DNA of 64,000 nt, from the IMG/VR virus record IMGVR_UViG_3300046028_005224, positions 1 to 64,000 of that record. The stretch is one strand, 5' to 3'. The DNA is from a virus. Of this stretch, positions 21,615 through 47,023 are shown piece by piece. The number at the start of each line of letters is the position of its first letter. Within the stretch, counting starts at the first letter, position 1. The position numbers and the translations under genes were made by a program. Below the pieces are notes generated by a model. That model was not told the DNA's origin. It did no database searches and worked only from the letters and a program-made list of their open reading frames with translations.

Positions 21615-21720
21615 GTAGTAAGACCATCAGGGAAATGGTGGAGTTACTATGCTCCCGCCACCCTCAGGCGGGATATGAGAGACGTAATTTAGACACCCAT
21701 AGGTCTCGGTTAACGGGTGT
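21615..21720 (-). ncRNA. PhotoRC-II-like cis-regulatory RNA in psbA 5' UTR
   Basis: ACCGAGACCTATGGGTGT...CGTCTCTCATATCCCGCCTGAGGGTGGCGGGA...ACCATTTCCCTGATGGTCTTACT hairpins; matches recalled cyanophage psbA leader motif. Confidence 0.7.
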
Positions 21721-21762
21721 TACAAACATTAAAGAACCGTTACATTCCTTAACGTATTGATC

Positions 21763-39674: not shown

Positions 39675-39855
39675 TAACTCAGGCTCGCCACTTGCCCTTT
39701 GTCTGGAGGCAAGAAACCAGGCGGGGTTACCCCATCCGCACCACCAGTTTTTTAAGGAAACTGGAAACCTCAGGGGTCATTTGACCATCCCGACCAGGGT
39801 TGTTAACGTGTCTCCATCACGGGCATATTGGGGATGACTCCACCAGGATAAGTTT
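39675..39855 (-). ncRNA. Structured cyanophage ncRNA, manA-like (wcaG-related modules)
   Basis: GC-rich ~180-nt non-coding island with repeated GGTTTC...GTGG modules, GGTGCGGATGGG..CCCGCC and GTGGCGAGCCTG; family assigned from memory. Confidence 0.65.
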
Positions 39856-40427: not shown

Positions 40428-40500
40428 TGCTGGTTGTGGGGAACGATCCCACCTGTGTCCGATTATGAGTCGGGTGCTTTCACCAGATAGCTAAACCAGC
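40428..40500 (-). tRNA. tRNA with CAT anticodon (Met or Ile2)
   Basis: GCTGGTT/AACCAGC acceptor stem; CT-CAT-AA loop; atypical T-loop ATCGTTC. Confidence 0.85.
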
Positions 40501-40504
40501 AGCA

Positions 40505-40578
40505 GGTAGGACTGCAGGGAGTTGAACCCCGTTCACTCCGTTATAAGCAGAGGGCTTTAACCGATAAGCAACAGTCCC
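40505..40578 (-). tRNA. tRNA-Ile(TAT)
   Basis: GGGACTG/CAGTCCT stem; CTCTG-CTTATAA-CGGAG. Confidence 0.85.
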
Positions 40579-40587
40579 ATTATAAAA

Positions 40588-40755
40588 TTAATCAGTAAAC
40601 CCGCTACATATTCGCACCATATCCTCATACTCATCTATTGGCATAAGAACACAATCTCCGTTGACACTTTTAATTAAAAAAGTTTCTCCTTCGCCAACGC
40701 GATCAAGGTAATCTTCAAAATACTGTTGCAATTCATCAACTGTAATTTCAGTCAT
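40588..40755 (-). CDS. Phd/YefM-like antitoxin domain protein
   Basis: MTEITVDELQQYFEDYLDRV..GETFLI....G..VLMPIDEYE pattern. Confidence 0.6.
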   Translation of the reverse strand: MTEITVDELQQYFEDYLDRVGEGETFLIKSVNGDCVLMPIDEYEDMVRICSGFTD

Positions 40756-40794
40756 TTGTCGTATCAATTTTTTCATTTTATTTATAAAATGATA

Positions 40795-40868
40795 TCGGGG
40801 TGATAGGATTTGAACCTACGGCCCCTCGCTCCCAAAGCGAGTGCTCTACCAAACTGAGCTACACCCCG
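40795..40868 (-). tRNA. tRNA-Pro(TGG)
   Basis: CGGGGTG/CACCCCG stem; CTCGC-TTTGGGA-GCGAG. Confidence 0.95.
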
Positions 40869-40982
40869 TTATTTTGTTTTATGCACTACCATTATACCCA
40901 TAATTGGTAAGATTGTCAACCCCATTCCACAAAGTCCCAACCAAATCTGACTTGCTGCTAATGCCTCTACAAGATGAAACAT
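40869..40982 (-). CDS. 37-aa membrane peptide
   Basis: Manual: MFHLVEALAASQIWLGLCGMGLTILPIMGIMVVHKTK*; TAATG coupling. Confidence 0.5.
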   Translation of the reverse strand: MFHLVEALAASQIWLGLCGMGLTILPIMGIMVVHKTK

Positions 40983-41176
40983 TAGTATCCCCTCCAAGTC
41001 TTGAACTCATAATAGAAGTATTGATCCATATCACCACTCAACGGTGCGTTAACATCCTTATGAGCCCATTCCATACAAAACTCTTTTATTTTTATATCAC
41101 TCATTGCACCTCTTCCCCACATTCTCACAAATGCAGAAGCAGCAAAGTGATATCTTTGTTTAATGTTGGATTCCAT
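40982..41176 (-). CDS. Hypothetical protein
   Basis: RYHFAASAFVRMWG...DQYFYYEFKTWRGY. Confidence 0.7.
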   Translation of the reverse strand: MESNIKQRYHFAASAFVRMWGRGAMSDIKIKEFCMEWAHKDVNAPLSGDMDQYFYYEFKTWRGY

Positions 41177-41180
41177 TTAA

Positions 41181-41360
41181 TTACTTGTCTTTTAATAGTT
41201 CTTCTACTCGTTTACGCATGTTGGTACTATCTTGATTGAGATAGTCTCTCAAAGAATAACCACGATGACCTCGTAGGATACATGTTCCTTGATAGAACAT
41301 CGTGGAAGCAAAAACTAATAACAGTATACAACCAATTAGTTCAATGTGATTTTGAGCCAT
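41181..41360 (-). CDS. Small membrane protein (59 aa)
   Basis: Manual: MAQNHIELIGCILLLVFASTMFYQG...MRKRVEELLKDK*. Confidence 0.55.
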   Translation of the reverse strand: MAQNHIELIGCILLLVFASTMFYQGTCILRGHRGYSLRDYLNQDSTNMRKRVEELLKDK

Positions 41361-41539
41361 GGCAGTAAAGGTGGAATGATACCTATGAGTCTGAGGAGAC
41401 CTTCAGCAAATAAAGCAAGAACGAACCAACCGACACACATAGAAATAATTGCAGCATTACGGTTGTGCTTACGAATTGCATCATCGATCATCTCCTGTAC
41501 TTCTGAACGACTGATAAGTTCATCCTGTTCTTGAATCAT
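41336..41539 (-). CDS. Small membrane protein
   Basis: EVQEMIDDAIRKHNRNA followed by TM helix. Confidence 0.7.
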   Translation of the reverse strand: MIQEQDELISRSEVQEMIDDAIRKHNRNAAIISMCVGWFVLALFAEGLLRLIGIIPPLLPWLKITLN

Positions 41540-41685
41540 TTTTCATCTCCAAGAAATTTTGCCAGTGGATCTTTTCGGGTTTTGACAATTTCACAAGCTC
41601 GATAATAGAACATATTGTCCATATTACCAGACTCTTCAAAAGTGGCTTTTATTTTAAGCCAATTCTCATAAGTATGCTGATCCAT
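41536..41685 (-). CDS. Small hypothetical protein (49 aa)
   Basis: Manual: MDQHTYENWLKIKATFEESGNMDNMFYYRACEIVKTRKDPLAKFLGDEK*. Confidence 0.6.
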   Translation of the reverse strand: MDQHTYENWLKIKATFEESGNMDNMFYYRACEIVKTRKDPLAKFLGDEK

Positions 41686-41780
41686 AAACGGATTTCATAA
41701 CATAATATATAATAGTTCAGACACAAAAAAAGTCAAGAAAGGTTAGACTTTCAAGACTTAGATTAAGAAAATATTAAAAG

Positions 41781-41866
41781 CGGTGAGGGTGGGATTTGAA
41801 CCCACGGAGGCTATTAACCTCGGCGGTTTTCAAGACCGCTGCCATAAACCACTCGACCACCTCACC
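41781..41866 (-). tRNA. tRNA-Ser(TGA)
   Basis: GGTGAGG/CCTCACC stem; GCGGT-CTTGAAA-ACCGC; long variable arm. Confidence 0.95.
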
Positions 41867-42117
41867 TAGCGGATTTCAAAGTCCAATTTACGAACTTTAC
41901 GTTGCCTTCTTGCTTCTTGATAAACAAGATCTTCGGCAGAAAAAATTGTCTTTTTACTAGATTCTTTTACTGAATTTAACATGACAATTTGTGTTAAATC
42001 AACTGCTGAGATTTTATCCCCACGTACAGTTGTCATATTTGAACAACCACAACATCTAGTTTGTGTTGGATGGCTTTCTAATTCTTTATTACAAGTTTTG
42101 CATCTAATTTTTAACAT
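41866..42117 (-). CDS. Small Cys-rich hypothetical protein
   Basis: IRCKTC...CCGCSN...RKVRKLDFEIR; start moved outside tRNA-Val. Confidence 0.7.
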   Translation of the reverse strand: MLKIRCKTCNKELESHPTQTRCCGCSNMTTVRGDKISAVDLTQIVMLNSVKESSKKTIFSAEDLVYQEARRQRKVRKLDFEIR

Positions 42118-42155
42118 GTCACATATTATACTCAATAAAGTATATATGTGACAAA

Positions 42156-42227
42156 TGGGAAATGTCGGATTTGAACCAACGACCGTCTGCGTGTAAAGCA
42201 GCTGCGCTACCACTGCGCCAATCTCCC
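42156..42227 (-). tRNA. tRNA-Val(TAC)
   Basis: Cloverleaf with CTGC-TTTACAC-GCAG anticodon arm, GGTTCAAATCC. Confidence 0.92.
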
Positions 42228-42231
42228 AGGA

Positions 42232-42314
42232 GTGTTACGGCATTTTGGTTTATCTTTCCAACGCAAGTAACACAACTTGGTCTCTTTCTAGGCTATCTGC
42301 CTAACGAGTACCAA
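42232..42314 (-). ncRNA. Unassigned two-hairpin structured RNA between tRNA-Asn and tRNA-Val
   Basis: Two bulged hairpins, both with AGATA in the loop. Confidence 0.5.
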
Positions 42315-42386
42315 CTGCCCAGGCTGGGATCGAACCAGCGACCAGTCGATTAACAGTCGAATGCTCTACCGCTGAGCTACTGGGCA
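42315..42386 (-). tRNA. tRNA-Asn(GTT)
   Basis: TGCCCAG/CTGGGCA stem; TCGA-CTGTTAA-TCGA. Confidence 0.95.
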
Positions 42387-42392
42387 ACAATA

Positions 42393-42563
42393 TTAAGGTT
42401 GTTTAGTTTCCATCATGTATTCTACTGTATTTGCAATGTCATTCATTGCATCACGAAGAAAAGGTTGTTGTCCAGATTCTTGACGAACAACTGGGCGGTG
42501 GTCATCTGTGAGTGACCATCTCCATTGTTTCATGTGAGAGCAATACCACAGATTAATTTTCAT
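42393..42563 (-). CDS. Small hypothetical protein
   Basis: MKINLWYCSHMKQWRWSL...AMNDIANTVEY. Confidence 0.65.
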   Translation of the reverse strand: MKINLWYCSHMKQWRWSLTDDHRPVVRQESGQQPFLRDAMNDIANTVEYMMETKQP

Positions 42564-42711
42564 GTTTGAAATATTCCAGTTCGATCCAATTAAGAAGTGT
42601 TTGGAAGGAATTGATTGCTGCTTGATTACAGTTGTCATCTTTCAATTTTTGAACATAATACTCCAATGCTTCAATCGCCATTTGGCGGTCTGTTTGCGAA
42701 ATAAGTGACAT
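42553..42711 (-). CDS. Small hypothetical protein
   Basis: GGAGG SD, MSLISQTDRQMAIEALEYY. Confidence 0.65.
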   Translation of the reverse strand: MSLISQTDRQMAIEALEYYVQKLKDDNCNQAAINSFQTLLNWIELEYFKHEN

Positions 42712-42727
42712 GTGAACCTCCAGTAGG

Positions 42728-42808
42728 TGCCCGAAAGAGGACTTGAACCTCCACTCCTTACGGAACATGATCCTAAGTCATGCGTGGCTACCATTACACC
42801 ATTCGGGC
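42728..42808 (-). tRNA. tRNA-Leu(TAG)
   Basis: GCCCGAA/TTCGGGC stem; CATGA-CTTAGGA-TCATG; variable arm. Confidence 0.95.
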
Positions 42809-42866
42809 AAAAACCCCTATAGGGTATATAGCTATTATACACCATATAGGGGAAGGCTGTCAACTA

Positions 42867-44369
42867 TCAGAAACGGAAGGTTGTCTGAATCACACCACCA
42901 TAATTATCCGAAGCTTGCTTCAGACCTTGGTTGTTGGACACATAGAACACAGCAGGAGTTACGCTGATATTATCGCTAACTTTGTAACGATAGAATGCTT
43001 CCCACATAATCGCTTTCTGATCTGCTTTGAGTGAAGAAGCATTACCAGGAGCACCAATGGCGAAACCAGCAGCATTACCCTTAGAAAATACATCGCTCCA
43101 CTGAGTACCAACAAACCAAGTTTGGGAGTCGGTAGCACCATTAGGAGTTGGACGGTTGTTAGAAACACTCACAGTGTTCCAACCATAAGCACCACTCACA
43201 GAAGGAATGATACCAGACTTCTTGGGTTGCCAGTATGCGTTGAAAGCATAACCATTGGAGGTTTGGTTAGCAGCAAGAGCACCAGAACCACCACCGATAG
43301 CGTTGAAGTTACGAACACGAGTTCCTTCAGTACCGTAGCGGTAACCGAAAGCAACACCATACTGAGGAGCACGGTAACCAACCTGTGCCAGAGTGTTCAG
43401 AGAACCATCTTCATCAAACTGACCTTTGGTAGAATCGTTTCCGTTCTGGGCAACATAGTTGATACCAGCAACAAAACCAGGCTTACCTTTCTTGGTAGGT
43501 TGAACCCACTGAGCACCGAAACCAGAACCAGTTGCCTTGTTGTAGACACCAGGAGCACCAGCAACAGAGAAGAAGTCCAGAATGTCTGAACGATAGGCAG
43601 TAGGAACCCAAGCCATCTCAGTGTTACGAACCTGAGCACCAGCAGTCAGAGTCATACCTTTGGTAAGACCAGGGAAGCTATAATACAGACGATCAAGAGT
43701 TACAGTGTTTGCATAAGTTTCTGCCTTGTCCAGTTTGAACAGAGACGAGGAAGAACCAAAGGGTTGACTGGAGAAATTACCAGAACGCAGACGGGTCTTC
43801 AACAGATCCTTACCAGTGAAGGAAGTATCAAAGCTCAGACGAACATCGTAGTTGAAAGCAGTGTTACCGACATTGCTGCTGTTAGCAAGACGAGCACCAT
43901 CTACACCACCCAGAACGAAGGTTGCTTCACCTTTGAGTTTGGTTGTAGTGGAGAATTGAGTTGCTTGGAGAGTCCCAACTTGTTTCTCCAGTTTAGCAAC
44001 ACGACCTCGAATAACTTGCAGTTCGTTAGAGAACTCATTAGCAAGACGCTGGAGTTCATCGGTAACTTCGGTTACACGATCAAGGCAAGCATTCAGAAGT
44101 GCTGCTGCCTCAAAGCGGGTCATTGCCTTTCCACCAAGGAAAGTTCCATTCTCGTAACCAGCAACGCAACCATAACGCTCTACGAGGTTGCTGAGTGCCT
44201 GATATGCCCAATCTGTAGGTTGAACATCAGACAATTTAGTAATACTTGAAACCTGCTCAGCGGAAGTATATTGGTTGACTGCTGCCATATTAAGATCTGC
44301 GGCATTCGCAGCAACAGGAGCAACCATTCCCAGAGCAACAGGTGCAAGCATAAGTTGTTTGAGTTTCAT
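42867..44369 (-). CDS. Cyanobacterial outer-membrane porin (SLH domain + OprB-type barrel; Som/iron-uptake porin family)
   Basis: SDVQPTDWAYQAL..LVERYGCVAGY...TRFEAAALLNACLD SLH; QFSTTTKL.G; C-terminal TTFRF. Confidence 0.93.
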   Translation of the reverse strand: MKLKQLMLAPVALGMVAPVAANAADLNMAAVNQYTSAEQVSSITKLSDVQPTDWAYQALSNLVERYGCVAGYENGTFLGGKAMTRFEAAALLNACLDRVTEVTDELQRLANEFSNELQVIRGRVAKLEKQVGTLQATQFSTTTKLKGEATFVLGGVDGARLANSSNVGNTAFNYDVRLSFDTSFTGKDLLKTRLRSGNFSSQPFGSSSSLFKLDKAETYANTVTLDRLYYSFPGLTKGMTLTAGAQVRNTEMAWVPTAYRSDILDFFSVAGAPGVYNKATGSGFGAQWVQPTKKGKPGFVAGINYVAQNGNDSTKGQFDEDGSLNTLAQVGYRAPQYGVAFGYRYGTEGTRVRNFNAIGGGSGALAANQTSNGYAFNAYWQPKKSGIIPSVSGAYGWNTVSVSNNRPTPNGATDSQTWFVGTQWSDVFSKGNAAGFAIGAPGNASSLKADQKAIMWEAFYRYKVSDNISVTPAVFYVSNNQGLKQASDNYGGVIQTTFRF

Positions 44370-44438
44370 AAAAGTTTGTATTGTTATTAAACGACAATAG
44401 TGTTTAGAAGTCTTAAAAAAATCTTAAGACACAAGGAT

Positions 44439-44483
44439 ATACTAAGATATTTTCGTGTGTATGTCAACTAAGATTTGGTTAAG
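44439..44483 (-). promoter_or_regulatory. Porin promoter with Pho-box-like repeats
   Basis: CTTAACCA-AAT-CTTAG then TTGACA-N17-TAGTAT. Confidence 0.5.
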
Positions 44484-44484
44484 A

Positions 44485-44555
44485 AGCGGACAACGGGGAT
44501 CGAACCCGTGACTGGAGCTTGGAAGGCTCAGATGTTACCTCTACACCATGTCCGC
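44485..44555 (-). tRNA. tRNA-Gly(TCC)
   Basis: GCGGACA/TGTCCGC stem; GAGC-CTTCCAA-GCTC. Confidence 0.93.
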
Positions 44556-44559
44556 AAGG

Positions 44560-44632
<73 letters not shown>

Positions 44633-46413: not shown

Positions 46414-46442
46414 TCATAATCTTATAAGATAATGTATATATT

Positions 46443-46465
46443 AAAAAGGGAGGTGTTACCCTCCC
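46443..46465 (-). terminator. Terminator of glutamine-riboswitch operon
   Basis: GGGAGG-GTAACA-CCTCCC-TTTTT. Confidence 0.85.
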
Positions 46466-46471
46466 AATCTA

Positions 46472-46555
46472 TCATTTCATCGCCATTACAAGCTGTGCTG
46501 TATGTAAGCGATTTTGTTTTTGAATTTGTTTACGGATTACATTCAACCAGTTCAT
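46472..46555 (-). CDS. 27-aa basic peptide coupled to DUF4278 gene
   Basis: GGAGG SD, ATGA overlap: MNWLNVIRKQIQKQNRLHTAQLVMAMK*. Confidence 0.6.
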   Translation of the reverse strand: MNWLNVIRKQIQKQNRLHTAQLVMAMK

Positions 46556-46710
46556 TTTGCTACCTCCGAGTTTTTGCAAGGACGATAAGCAACACCGCGA
46601 TAGGTGTTTGTTGGATGTGCTGGTGCATGTGTTTCTGAATACCAGTGCTGATATTCTTGCTTGGCGGTGTCAGTATTATACTGACAACCACGATAGGTTG
46701 CTTGTGACAT
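46552..46710 (-). CDS. DUF4278-family small protein (52 aa)
   Basis: AAGGAG SD; MSQATYRGCQY...TYRGVAYRP with two YRG motifs. Confidence 0.8.
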   Translation of the reverse strand: MSQATYRGCQYNTDTAKQEYQHWYSETHAPAHPTNTYRGVAYRPCKNSEVAK

Positions 46711-46741
46711 TAGGTGTCTCCTTAGTTTTTTAGGTTAAAGA

Positions 46742-46911
46742 GCGTTCCTTCAGTCGGCTTTTGCGTCTATGGGGCAATTCTTTGGGGTAATTTGTTTGAT
46801 TTCCCAAATAATATCATTCTTCACATGATTAGGAATGCTGTGTTTAAGAACTCTTCCTGTCATTAATTGTGATTGTAAGCAAGTGAGAATGACTGCTTCC
46901 ATAGATGAACG
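46742..46911 (-). ncRNA. Glutamine riboswitch (glnA motif) aptamer 2, with P2 expanded by an ORF
   Basis: CGTTCA-TCTATGG...CCATAGA-CGCAAAAG-CCGA-CT-GAAGGAACGC. Confidence 0.7.
46750..46902 (-). CDS. 50-aa ORF nested within riboswitch aptamer 2
   Basis: Manual: MEAVILTCLQSQLMTGRVLKHSIPNHVKNDIIWEIKQITPKNCPIDAKAD*; weak SD. Confidence 0.55.
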   Translation of the reverse strand: MEAVILTCLQSQLMTGRVLKHSIPNHVKNDIIWEIKQITPKNCPIDAKAD

Positions 46912-46914
46912 ATC

Positions 46915-46965
46915 CGTTCCGAGTCGGCTTACTTCCGTTCGCTATTCGGAAATAGCGAATGAACG
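46915..46965 (-). ncRNA. Glutamine riboswitch (glnA motif) aptamer 1
   Basis: CGTTCA-TTCGCTATT-TCCG-AATAGCGAA-CGGAAGTAAG-CCGA-CT-CGGAACG. Confidence 0.8.
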
Positions 46966-46972
46966 TAAGGTC

Positions 46973-47023
46973 AGTATAGACCTTGTAAGTTATATAGTCA
47001 AGTAATTTTGTAATTTTTGATAC
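46973..47023 (-). promoter_or_regulatory. sigma70 promoter with upstream NtcA box
   Basis: TGTA-TCAAAAAT-TACA (GTA-N8-TAC at 47010-47023), then TTGACT-N17-TATACT. Confidence 0.7.

Follow-up and report, generated by a model that had tools for sequence, protein, structure and literature searches.

Expression of the host gene gifB is under the control of NtcA and of a glutamine riboswitch in which a helix next to the linchpin C masks the ribosome-binding site (PMC6212724, PMC8682795). The critical long-range Watson-Crick pair of the type 1 glutamine riboswitch, G23-C60, forms on glutamine binding (Ren et al., as cited in PMC6212724). An open reading frame (ORF) within an aptamer is described in Mycobacterium tuberculosis, where the upstream ORF uMetE2 lies inside the B12 aptamer of metE, is translated and alters downstream expression (Kipkorir et al. 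2024, PMC11260477). It occupies nucleotides +123 to +170, starts with UUG, has its own Shine-Dalgarno (SD) box, comes from a single species and is not known to encode a conserved protein (PMC11260477). Here we consider a candidate glutamine riboswitch in a cyanophage genome fragment, positions 1 to 64,000 of the IMG/VR record IMGVR_UViG_3300046028_005224; this whole stretch of 64,000 nucleotides (nt) is called the window below. A stem of this riboswitch encloses a complete, conserved protein-coding gene, and the two aptamer-like cores of the leader are best read as one interlocked structure.

Two glnA-type cores can be read directly on the minus strand at 46965-46742. Core 1 (46965-46911, minus strand) contains CGUUC, A, a hairpin of 8 base pairs (bp), CGGAAGUA, AGCCGACU and CGGAACG, in that order. 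Core 2 begins 3 nt past core 1 with CGUUC (46911-46907), A and the arm UCUAUGG (46905-46899). Its 3' side is formed by the arm CCAUAGA (46772-46766), CGCAAA, AGCCGACU and GAAGGAACGC, ending at 46742; as DNA, the segment that follows the 3' arm CCATAGA and runs to 46742 is CGCAAAAGCCGACTGAAGGAACGC. The 7-bp P2 arms of core 2, TCTATGG and CCATAGA, are separated by exactly 126 nt. An ORF of 50 codons plus TGA (46902-46750, minus strand) starts with an ATG in the 5' arm (46902-46900) and ends with a TGA in the core (46752-46750). The unconstrained minimum-free-energy (MFE) fold of the window RNA recovers P1 of core 2 and the long-range P2 (z = -2.8). The nested arrangement is far beyond chance, as it recurs in all 164 related loci examined.

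These loci come from two scans of IMG/VR, which returned 411 and 392 matches (overlapping sets); 160 loci were read, together with four phage records. A reading made earlier from the letters of the window, the sequence-only reading, had proposed a conserved gene in the P2 stem of the second core, and in this respect it proved correct. The ORF is intact in 164 of 164 loci, frameshifts or stops in the homologous inserts were sought and none were found, and the sole indel in the ORF comparison is of 3 nt. Among cultured Synechococcus phages, DSL-LC03, DSL-LC02 and S-SRM01 carry the insert, and two of these records annotate it as a coding sequence. It is absent from S-PM2 and S-CREM1, which have a compact stem and the same core. 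Selection was analyzed in 42 distinct 50-codon sequences, with codons 5-43 taken as the body of the ORF. The entropies of codon positions 1, 2 and 3 in the body are 0.38, 0.19 and 0.92. The median ratio of nonsynonymous to synonymous substitution rates (dN/dS) is 0.12, and the pooled ratio of the corresponding polymorphisms (pN/pS) is 0.19. The remaining two frames have ratios of 1.0 and 2.2 and always contain stops. By these measures, the nested ORF is a real gene under purifying selection.

The peptides encoded by 44 metagenome cluster representatives are mostly 50-51 amino acids long. Residues L6, T7, C8, L9, Q10, N29, W33, E34, Q37 and C43 are invariant across the 44 clusters, and the predicted micro-protein thus carries two conserved cysteines, C8 and C43. 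W33 is not universal in a wider set: a sublineage of three loci has KMELITELKI in place of KNDxIWEIKQ. AlphaFold predicts a two-helix hairpin (residues 2-20 and 25-38; predicted local distance difference test score 88) with a disordered tail. Searches in Pfam and PHROGs, and Foldseek comparisons with PDB and the ESM Atlas, gave no function-giving match for the 50-residue protein. RNAalifold finds no conserved structure inside the ORF, and thus the insert is not a structured RNA domain.

The last seven codons show a different pattern. The entropies at the three positions of codons 44-50 are 0.19, 0.18 and 0.24, that is, all positions are equally frozen. Isoleucine in the tail is always encoded by ATA (78 of 78, compared to 7% of the isoleucine codons in the body), aspartate by GAC (204 of 204; 28% in the body), and alanine by GCC (86 of 86; 9% in the body). 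The invariable ATA keeps a pair of the core 2 stem P2, called P2b below. The same codons form the P2b 3' arm, the P3 3' strand and a strand of the E-loop, the stop codon is situated 3 nt before the P1 3' strand, and conservation extends past it (GAAGGAACGC). Since the synonymous sites are frozen and conservation continues beyond the stop, the C-terminal tail IDAKAD is dictated by the aptamer; it is the disordered part of the protein model. In S-SRM01 (L003:1538-1705) an A-U pair between the two cores is replaced by C-G, and the U of the nested UGA is lost. As a result, the ORF is 5 codons longer and extends to a UAA inside the anti-SD sequence (55 amino acids), so that here an RNA pair sets the protein length. 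A possible extension of P2b by pairing of codon 3 (GCA or ACA) with the cysteine codon (UGY) was considered and dropped, as there is no covariation and ACA occurs with UGC.

The elements of the leader, named according to the composite model developed below, with the supporting data in brackets, are as follows.
46961-46965, minus strand: segment a, CGUUC, 5' strand of the outer P1 (Rfam alignment; invariant in relatives)
46938-46959, minus strand: the outer aptamer's P2a, a compact hairpin of 8 bp, UUCGCUAU / AUAGCGAA (Rfam alignment, MFE fold)
46930-46937, minus strand: junction strand CGGAAGUA, which supplies AGUA to the E-loop and contains x (46935), the linchpin G (matches the Rfam consensus; x-w pairing)
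46922-46929, minus strand: segment d, AGCCGACU, 5' strand of outer P3, the helix between the cores (changes compensated in segment j)
46907-46919, minus strand: segments e and g, which form the local hairpin GAACG-GAU-CGUUC at the base of the inner domain (MFE fold and RNAalifold; invariant, without covariation)
46899-46905, minus strand: P2b 5' arm UCUAUGG including the nested AUG (46902-46900) (invariant in all ORF-bearing relatives)
46750-46902, minus strand: nested gene, 50 codons plus UGA (ORF listing, dN/dS, intact loci)
46766-46772, minus strand: P2b 3' arm CCAUAGA, codons for Pro-Ile-Asp (MFE fold, pairing; Ile always ATA)
46752-46765, minus strand: CGCAAA junction of the inner domain (z, C 46763) and segment j, AGCCGACU (46759-46752), 3' strand of the inter-core helix (d:j covariation)
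46742-46751, minus strand: GAAG, which supplies GAA to the E-loop, segment k (GAACG), the 3' strand of the outer P1, and w (46742), the linchpin C (Rfam consensus GAAGGAACGC, x-w covariation)

The E-loop of the glutamine riboswitch is formed by AGUA and GAA strands. Each of the two cores lacks one of them: core 1 has AGUA and no GAAG, core 2 has GAAG and no AGUA. When the 5' half of core 1 is joined to the 3' half of core 2, the conserved pattern CGUUCA / ACGGAAGUA / GAAGGAACGC is complete. The G of the x-w pair, assigned to G23-C60 by its position in the consensus, is supplied by ACGGAAGUA of core 1, and its partner C stands after GGAACG of core 2. Covariation was analyzed in an alignment of 85 distinct leaders. 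The x-w pair (46935 with 46742) is formed in all 85 (GC in 81, CG in 4), whereas the corresponding pairs of independent aptamers are formed in 6 (x-y, where y follows P1 of core 1 itself) and 4 (z-w). Counted by distinct combinations, x in ACG[x]AAGUA of core 1 is complementary to w following GAAGGAACG of core 2 in 39 of 39 cases (G..C in 33, C..G in 6) and to the base following its own GGAACG in just 8 of 39. The helix d:j between the two AGCCGACU segments has compensatory changes at three pairs (AU to CG 7, GC to AU 3, UA to GC 1). Altogether, the nested model has 9 pairs with double changes, and its covariation score was reached in 0 of 500 shuffles. The self-hairpins of the cores have no compensatory changes and about 10 broken cells each. 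When no structure is supplied, RNAalifold predicts the GAACG-GAU-CGUUC hairpin, P2b and a helix between core 1 and core 2.

As x-w and d:j covary between the cores, the parsimonious reading is that the two cores form one composite switch, in which an outer canonical aptamer contains an inner domain whose stem holds the gene. On this model, the outer aptamer would consist of P1 (46965-46961 with 46747-46743), P2a, the E-loop, P3 (46929-46922 with 46759-46752) and the linchpin 46935-46742. The outer P3 would enclose an inner three-way junction that has no E-loop, with the nested gene in its P2b arm. An extra hairpin of about 18 nt, AAAACCUACUUAUAGGU, is seen in four relatives (L013:1426-1695 and three other loci) in the inter-core spacer, i.e. 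in the local GAACG/CGUUC loop.

The sequence-only reading had taken the leader for two independent tandem aptamers, each with its own P1 stem (a:e and g:k) and an AG-CCGA-CU mini-hairpin, the ORF being in P2 of the second one. Tandem glnA RNAs have indeed been reported (PMC2864571), Rfam aligns each core as a separate near-threshold aptamer (core 2 via its compact homologues), and the pairs of the mini-hairpins are formed in about 88% of sequences. However, one E-loop strand is missing from either core alone, and the complement of the core 1 linchpin base stands after core 2 rather than after the P1 of core 1. The variants CGCCGACU/AGCCGACG, AGCCGACG/CGCCGACU and GGUUAACG/CGUUAAUU break the mini-hairpins and keep the inter-core pairs; in the locus having GGUUAACG with CGUUAAUU, all 8 inter-core pairs form and both self-hairpins would be mismatched. 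Thus the independence of the aptamers is not borne out, and we consider the tandem arrangement improbable. Many phage annotations of tandem glnA RNAs may need re-reading as one interlocked structure.

Similar nested genes exist beyond the family of the window. A family-blind sample of core junctions from IMG/VR contained 37 loci with a recognisable second core, and 19 of them have a long P2b. All 19 have an ORF of 50-58 codons that starts 3-5 nt after CGUUCAU and ends in a core-encoded tail. The common features of these diverse ORFs are a hydrophobic N-terminus and two cysteines; the family has diverged to about 25% identity, yet it is still nested. They look like one diverged micro-protein family kept inside the riboswitch. 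Common ancestry with the family of the window is likely, the hhalign comparison giving a probability of 98% (E 1.4e-14), although this value is partly inflated by the RNA-dictated ends (ME.. and ..DAKAD). In nine loci, the P2b ORFs of 52-58 amino acids have a cysteine, a helical region, a second cysteine and the ..DAKAD tail.

The outer P2a likewise harbours a gene in many relatives. This one has about 68 codons, and its AUG, too, is in the 5' arm (CCUAUG.. / ..AUAGG). The order of elements, seen at L006:1247-1453 (plus strand) and likewise in seven other loci, is CGUUCAU-CCUAUG.., about 68 codons, stop, AUAGG-ACGGAAGUA. The encoded 68-residue protein has a signal-peptide-like N-terminus and two cysteines about 36 residues apart, and has no match in Pfam or PHROG. 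The BLASTP similarity between the 50-residue P2b protein and the 68-residue P2a protein is not significant (E 6.3), though the two cysteines align.

Several features bear on the identity of the switch. At the gathering threshold, Rfam reports no glutamine riboswitch in the window. In a permissive scan only core 1 matches RF01739 (46967-46911, 32.4 bits, E 5e-5, or 1.4e-6 for the genome), core 2 being missed because of the insert. The relatives score 28.9-37.2 bits. The compact homologues of core 2 with the identical core are detected by Rfam in S-CREM1 (33.5 bits) and S-PM2 (33.3 bits), and a glnA riboswitch is annotated by GenBank in S-CREM1. P1 (CGUUC/GAACG) is invariant, the P2a pairing is kept in relatives across many different sequences, and a comparison of the compact and ORF-bearing forms shows 5 pairs of P2b in which both sides have changed. 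Judging by core sequence, helices, linchpin pair and gene context, the switch belongs with the type 1 glutamine riboswitches as a structural variant beyond the Rfam model. The proposal of a glnA-type riboswitch ahead of a DUF4278 gene, also made in the sequence-only reading, is borne out by the RF01739 matches, the conserved core and the assignment of the downstream gene to PF14105 and phrog_5049. Standard covariance-model scans miss or mis-parse such switches, and here Rfam sees one sub-threshold "aptamer".

The leader is followed by two small genes and preceded by candidate transcription signals.
47010-47023, minus strand: NtcA-type box GTA-N8-TAC, upstream of the -35 hexamer (read directly)
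46973-47001, minus strand: sigma-70-type promoter TTGACT-17-TATACT (consensus scan, 10 of 12 matches)
46718-46741, minus strand: expression platform, in which the anti-SD UCUUUA (46741-46736) pairs with the SD box UAAGGAG (46724-46718) (MFE and ensemble)
46552-46710, minus strand: DUF4278 / IF17-like gene, 52 amino acids (Pfam PF14105, phrog_5049)
46472-46555, minus strand: ORF of 27 amino acids (ORF listing; phrog_545, E 5.6e-7)
46440-46465, minus strand: intrinsic-terminator-like hairpin and T run, end of the cassette (sequence scan)

By these signals, this is a small phage operon consisting of a promoter, the composite leader, the DUF4278/IF17-like gene, the 27-residue gene and a terminator (46465-46448). 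Transcription is predicted to start 1-2 nt ahead of the riboswitch, and relatives have equivalent promoter hexamers. The NtcA-type box (47023-47010) is centred about 50 nt upstream of the predicted start, with the -35 hexamer intact. Of 178 distinct related loci, 151 have such a box upstream of the switch, compared to 2 in shuffled controls. The product of the DUF4278 gene matches PF14105 with E 1.7e-4 and 22.3 bits, below the Pfam cut-off of 25.3, and phrog_5049 with E 5.9e-10; in relatives these proteins begin with MSKVVYRGV.. or MSQATYRG... The IF17-like product is a putative glutamine-synthetase inhibitor. The 27-residue ORF has a GGAGG ahead of its ATG, which overlaps the stop codon of DUF4278 (ATGA); its product is probably made by coupled translation, as a third micro-protein of the cassette. 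The phage cassette mirrors the host gifB locus in having an NtcA-type box, a riboswitch, a linchpin C adjoining the anti-SD and a DUF4278 gene. The window as a whole comes from a T4-like cyanophage, marked by a wcaG RNA (39677-39772, minus strand, 99 bits), a PhotoRC-II RNA (21639-21732, minus strand, 79 bits) and nine tRNA genes within 40428-44632 (minus strand). The complete IMG/VR record is of 91,434 bp and about 48% complete.

We lean, with modest confidence, towards the leader being one composite glutamine riboswitch whose folding buries the nested start codon and in which translation of the nested gene competes with sensing. In the ViennaRNA ensemble of the full leader, the nested AUG is unpaired with probability 0.00, in agreement with the sequence-only reading, which had placed it in a helix. 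In the transcript without the 3' arm it is largely free. Ribosome loading may thus occur mainly during transcription of the insert or on unfolded RNA. The further claim of that reading, that a translating ribosome must unfold the core, is upheld for the last seven codons, as they encode the P2b 3' arm and the P3 and E-loop strands. The SD box of the DUF4278 gene is unpaired with probability 0.01 in the full leader and 0.31 with a modelled ribosome at the nested stop.

The proposed regulation would be as follows. Folding of the RNA would bury the nested start site, all the more with the outer aptamer locked by glutamine, and ribosomes should be excluded from it. As in host gifB, the linchpin C would be withdrawn from the anti-SD helix, leading to translation of DUF4278. 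In nascent or unfolded RNA, the AUG would be free while the 126-nt insert is being transcribed, allowing for ribosome loading. A ribosome finishing the ORF would unwind P2b, the P3 3' strand, the E-loop strand and P1. At the nested stop codon it would cover the P1 3' strand, the linchpin C and the anti-SD, so that the sensor would be momentarily erased and the SD box of DUF4278 transiently exposed. Because a ribosome completing the ORF must unwind the aptamer helices, mutual exclusion of sensing and nested translation on one molecule would be a steric necessity if the ORF is translated. The output of the nested gene and that of DUF4278 would probably vary with glutamine, either reciprocally or one after the other; a timed burst or coupling to DUF4278 may also result.

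A more far-reaching possibility, which we put forward tentatively, is a glutamine switch with two outputs. The ligand-locked fold would silence the gene of the two-cysteine micro-protein and turn on the IF17-like gene, whereas unliganded or nascent RNA would allow the micro-protein to be made, and the terminating ribosome would reset the sensor. The coding sequence and the sensing fold would then have co-evolved as a unit across a cyanophage micro-protein family, with the last codons and the stop dictated by the aptamer.

Several observations weigh against the composite switch with a competing nested gene. The RF01739 match in the window is below the gathering score of 35 bits, and the Rfam model cannot score the composite, because the inner domain and the gene stand between its two halves. 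The number of covariation events is small (about five lineages). Moreover, covariation does not distinguish the nested pairing a:k/e:g from a pseudoknotted alternative in which the independent P1 stems a:e and g:k are kept together with the cross-domain helix d:j, since P1 and e:g are invariant. The nested gene has no SD box of its own: positions -17 to +4 are occupied by the local hairpin and the P2b arm. Read-through into the core is not universal, as the P2a-nested ORF of 68 codons stops before its own 3' arm. Finally, the SD box hardly opens (0.05-0.12) when the outer aptamer is forced in ViennaRNA, and for this reason the ON-switch logic relies on the gifB analogy; in these calculations, secondary-structure thermodynamics is unable to reproduce the ligand effect.

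One alternative is that the P2b loop merely tolerates inserts. The switch would then regulate only DUF4278, and the nested gene would be translated independently, e.g. only co-transcriptionally, its coupling to sensing not being selected. Structured RNAs often accommodate inserts in their peripheral stems, compact forms are found alongside ORF-bearing ones with the same core, phages pack their genomes tightly, and the ORF has no conserved RNA structure inside. However, a passenger should bring its own initiation region, whereas every sampled family starts at the same short distance after CGUUCAU, in the stem and without an SD box. The ORF family has also remained nested at this level of protein divergence, and its stop codon is at a fixed distance of a few nt before the P1 3' strand and the anti-SD. 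This explanation seems rather unlikely to us. Another alternative makes the peptide functionless, so that only the act of translation matters, as in attenuation; mgtL in the mgtA leader is a precedent for such a device. So is uMetE2 in the metE B12 aptamer (PMC11260477), and the position of the nested stop on the anti-SD agrees with a leader peptide. Such a device is difficult to reconcile with strong purifying selection on amino acids over 39 codons (0.12-0.19 by the two ratios), with invariant residues including both cysteines, and with a confidently predicted helical hairpin, all of which make a pure leader peptide quite improbable. The riboswitch could also be a relic, with the cores decaying and the 3' core kept only because it encodes the C-terminus of the peptide; the sub-threshold Rfam score and the absence of an E-loop in the inner core would agree with that. 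But the frozen synonymous sites of the tail, the conservation past the stop codon (GAAGGAACGC), the covariation that maintains RNA pairs, the predicted disorder of the tail, and the same core in relatives without the ORF all speak for a maintained RNA, and decay of the switch is highly improbable.

If the composite switch with its competing gene is accepted, it has several implications. Aptamers are usually treated as compact non-coding domains, whereas here, across hundreds of cyanophages, a conserved gene and the helices of a sensor have in common the gene's start, last seven codons and stop. The locus offers a natural system for studying the competition between the ribosome and ligand-dependent RNA folding. 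It also adds a family of two-cysteine micro-proteins to the phage toolkit for manipulating host nitrogen metabolism, beside the IF17-like gene.

The sequence-only reading knew of no described riboswitch with a gene in the aptamer. This was too strong, as the short translated upstream ORF uMetE2 has been published (PMC11260477). No gene nested in a glutamine riboswitch turned up in the literature searched, which covered few subscription journals. No paper that could be searched has a conserved protein gene whose start and end belong to aptamer helices as well and which is kept across hundreds of phages, whereas ORFs embedded in sensing leaders are already known.

In group I introns of T4-type phages, the ORFs in peripheral loops encode homing endonucleases, have their own initiation signals and are carried by a ribozyme RNA. 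The phage leader shares with them a protein gene in a peripheral stem loop and the competition between folding and entry of the ribosome into the core. It differs in being a metabolite sensor and in that the micro-protein ORF shares its start and end with the RNA core. Leader ORFs of the mgtL type are short, are not known to play their role through the peptide rather than by being translated, and act by transcription attenuation outside a defined ligand-binding fold. As is proposed for the phage locus, translation of an embedded ORF decides which RNA helices form in the Mg2+ leader mgtL/mgtA of Salmonella and with the leader ORFs of mgtCBR (PMC3641672). The locus has in common with uMetE2 an ORF inside a riboswitch aptamer (PMC11260477). 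The phage ORF, however, is of 50 codons, is under strong purifying selection, lies in a stem loop whose stem contains the AUG, and occurs in hundreds of phages.

The closest system is the type 1 glnA RNA (RF01739), exemplified by the gifB/IF17 leader of Synechocystis (Klahn et al. 2018, PMC6212724; Weinberg et al. 2010, PMC2864571). The core CGUUCA, ACGGAAGUA, GAAGGAACGC is shared, as are P1 and P2, the critical long-range G-C pair and a downstream gene of the DUF4278 type. With the gifB leader in particular, the phage locus shares the helix that masks the ribosome-binding site and starts at the linchpin C, and the upstream NtcA-type box. Glutamine binding by the phage switch is predicted. The differences concern the architecture. 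In the phage, the core is divided between two repeats that lie about 190 nt from each other. Its P3 is an inter-repeat helix of 8 positions instead of a 3-bp hairpin, and encloses a second core lacking the E-loop. One stem of this inner core, and in relatives also the outer P2, encloses a protein-coding gene.

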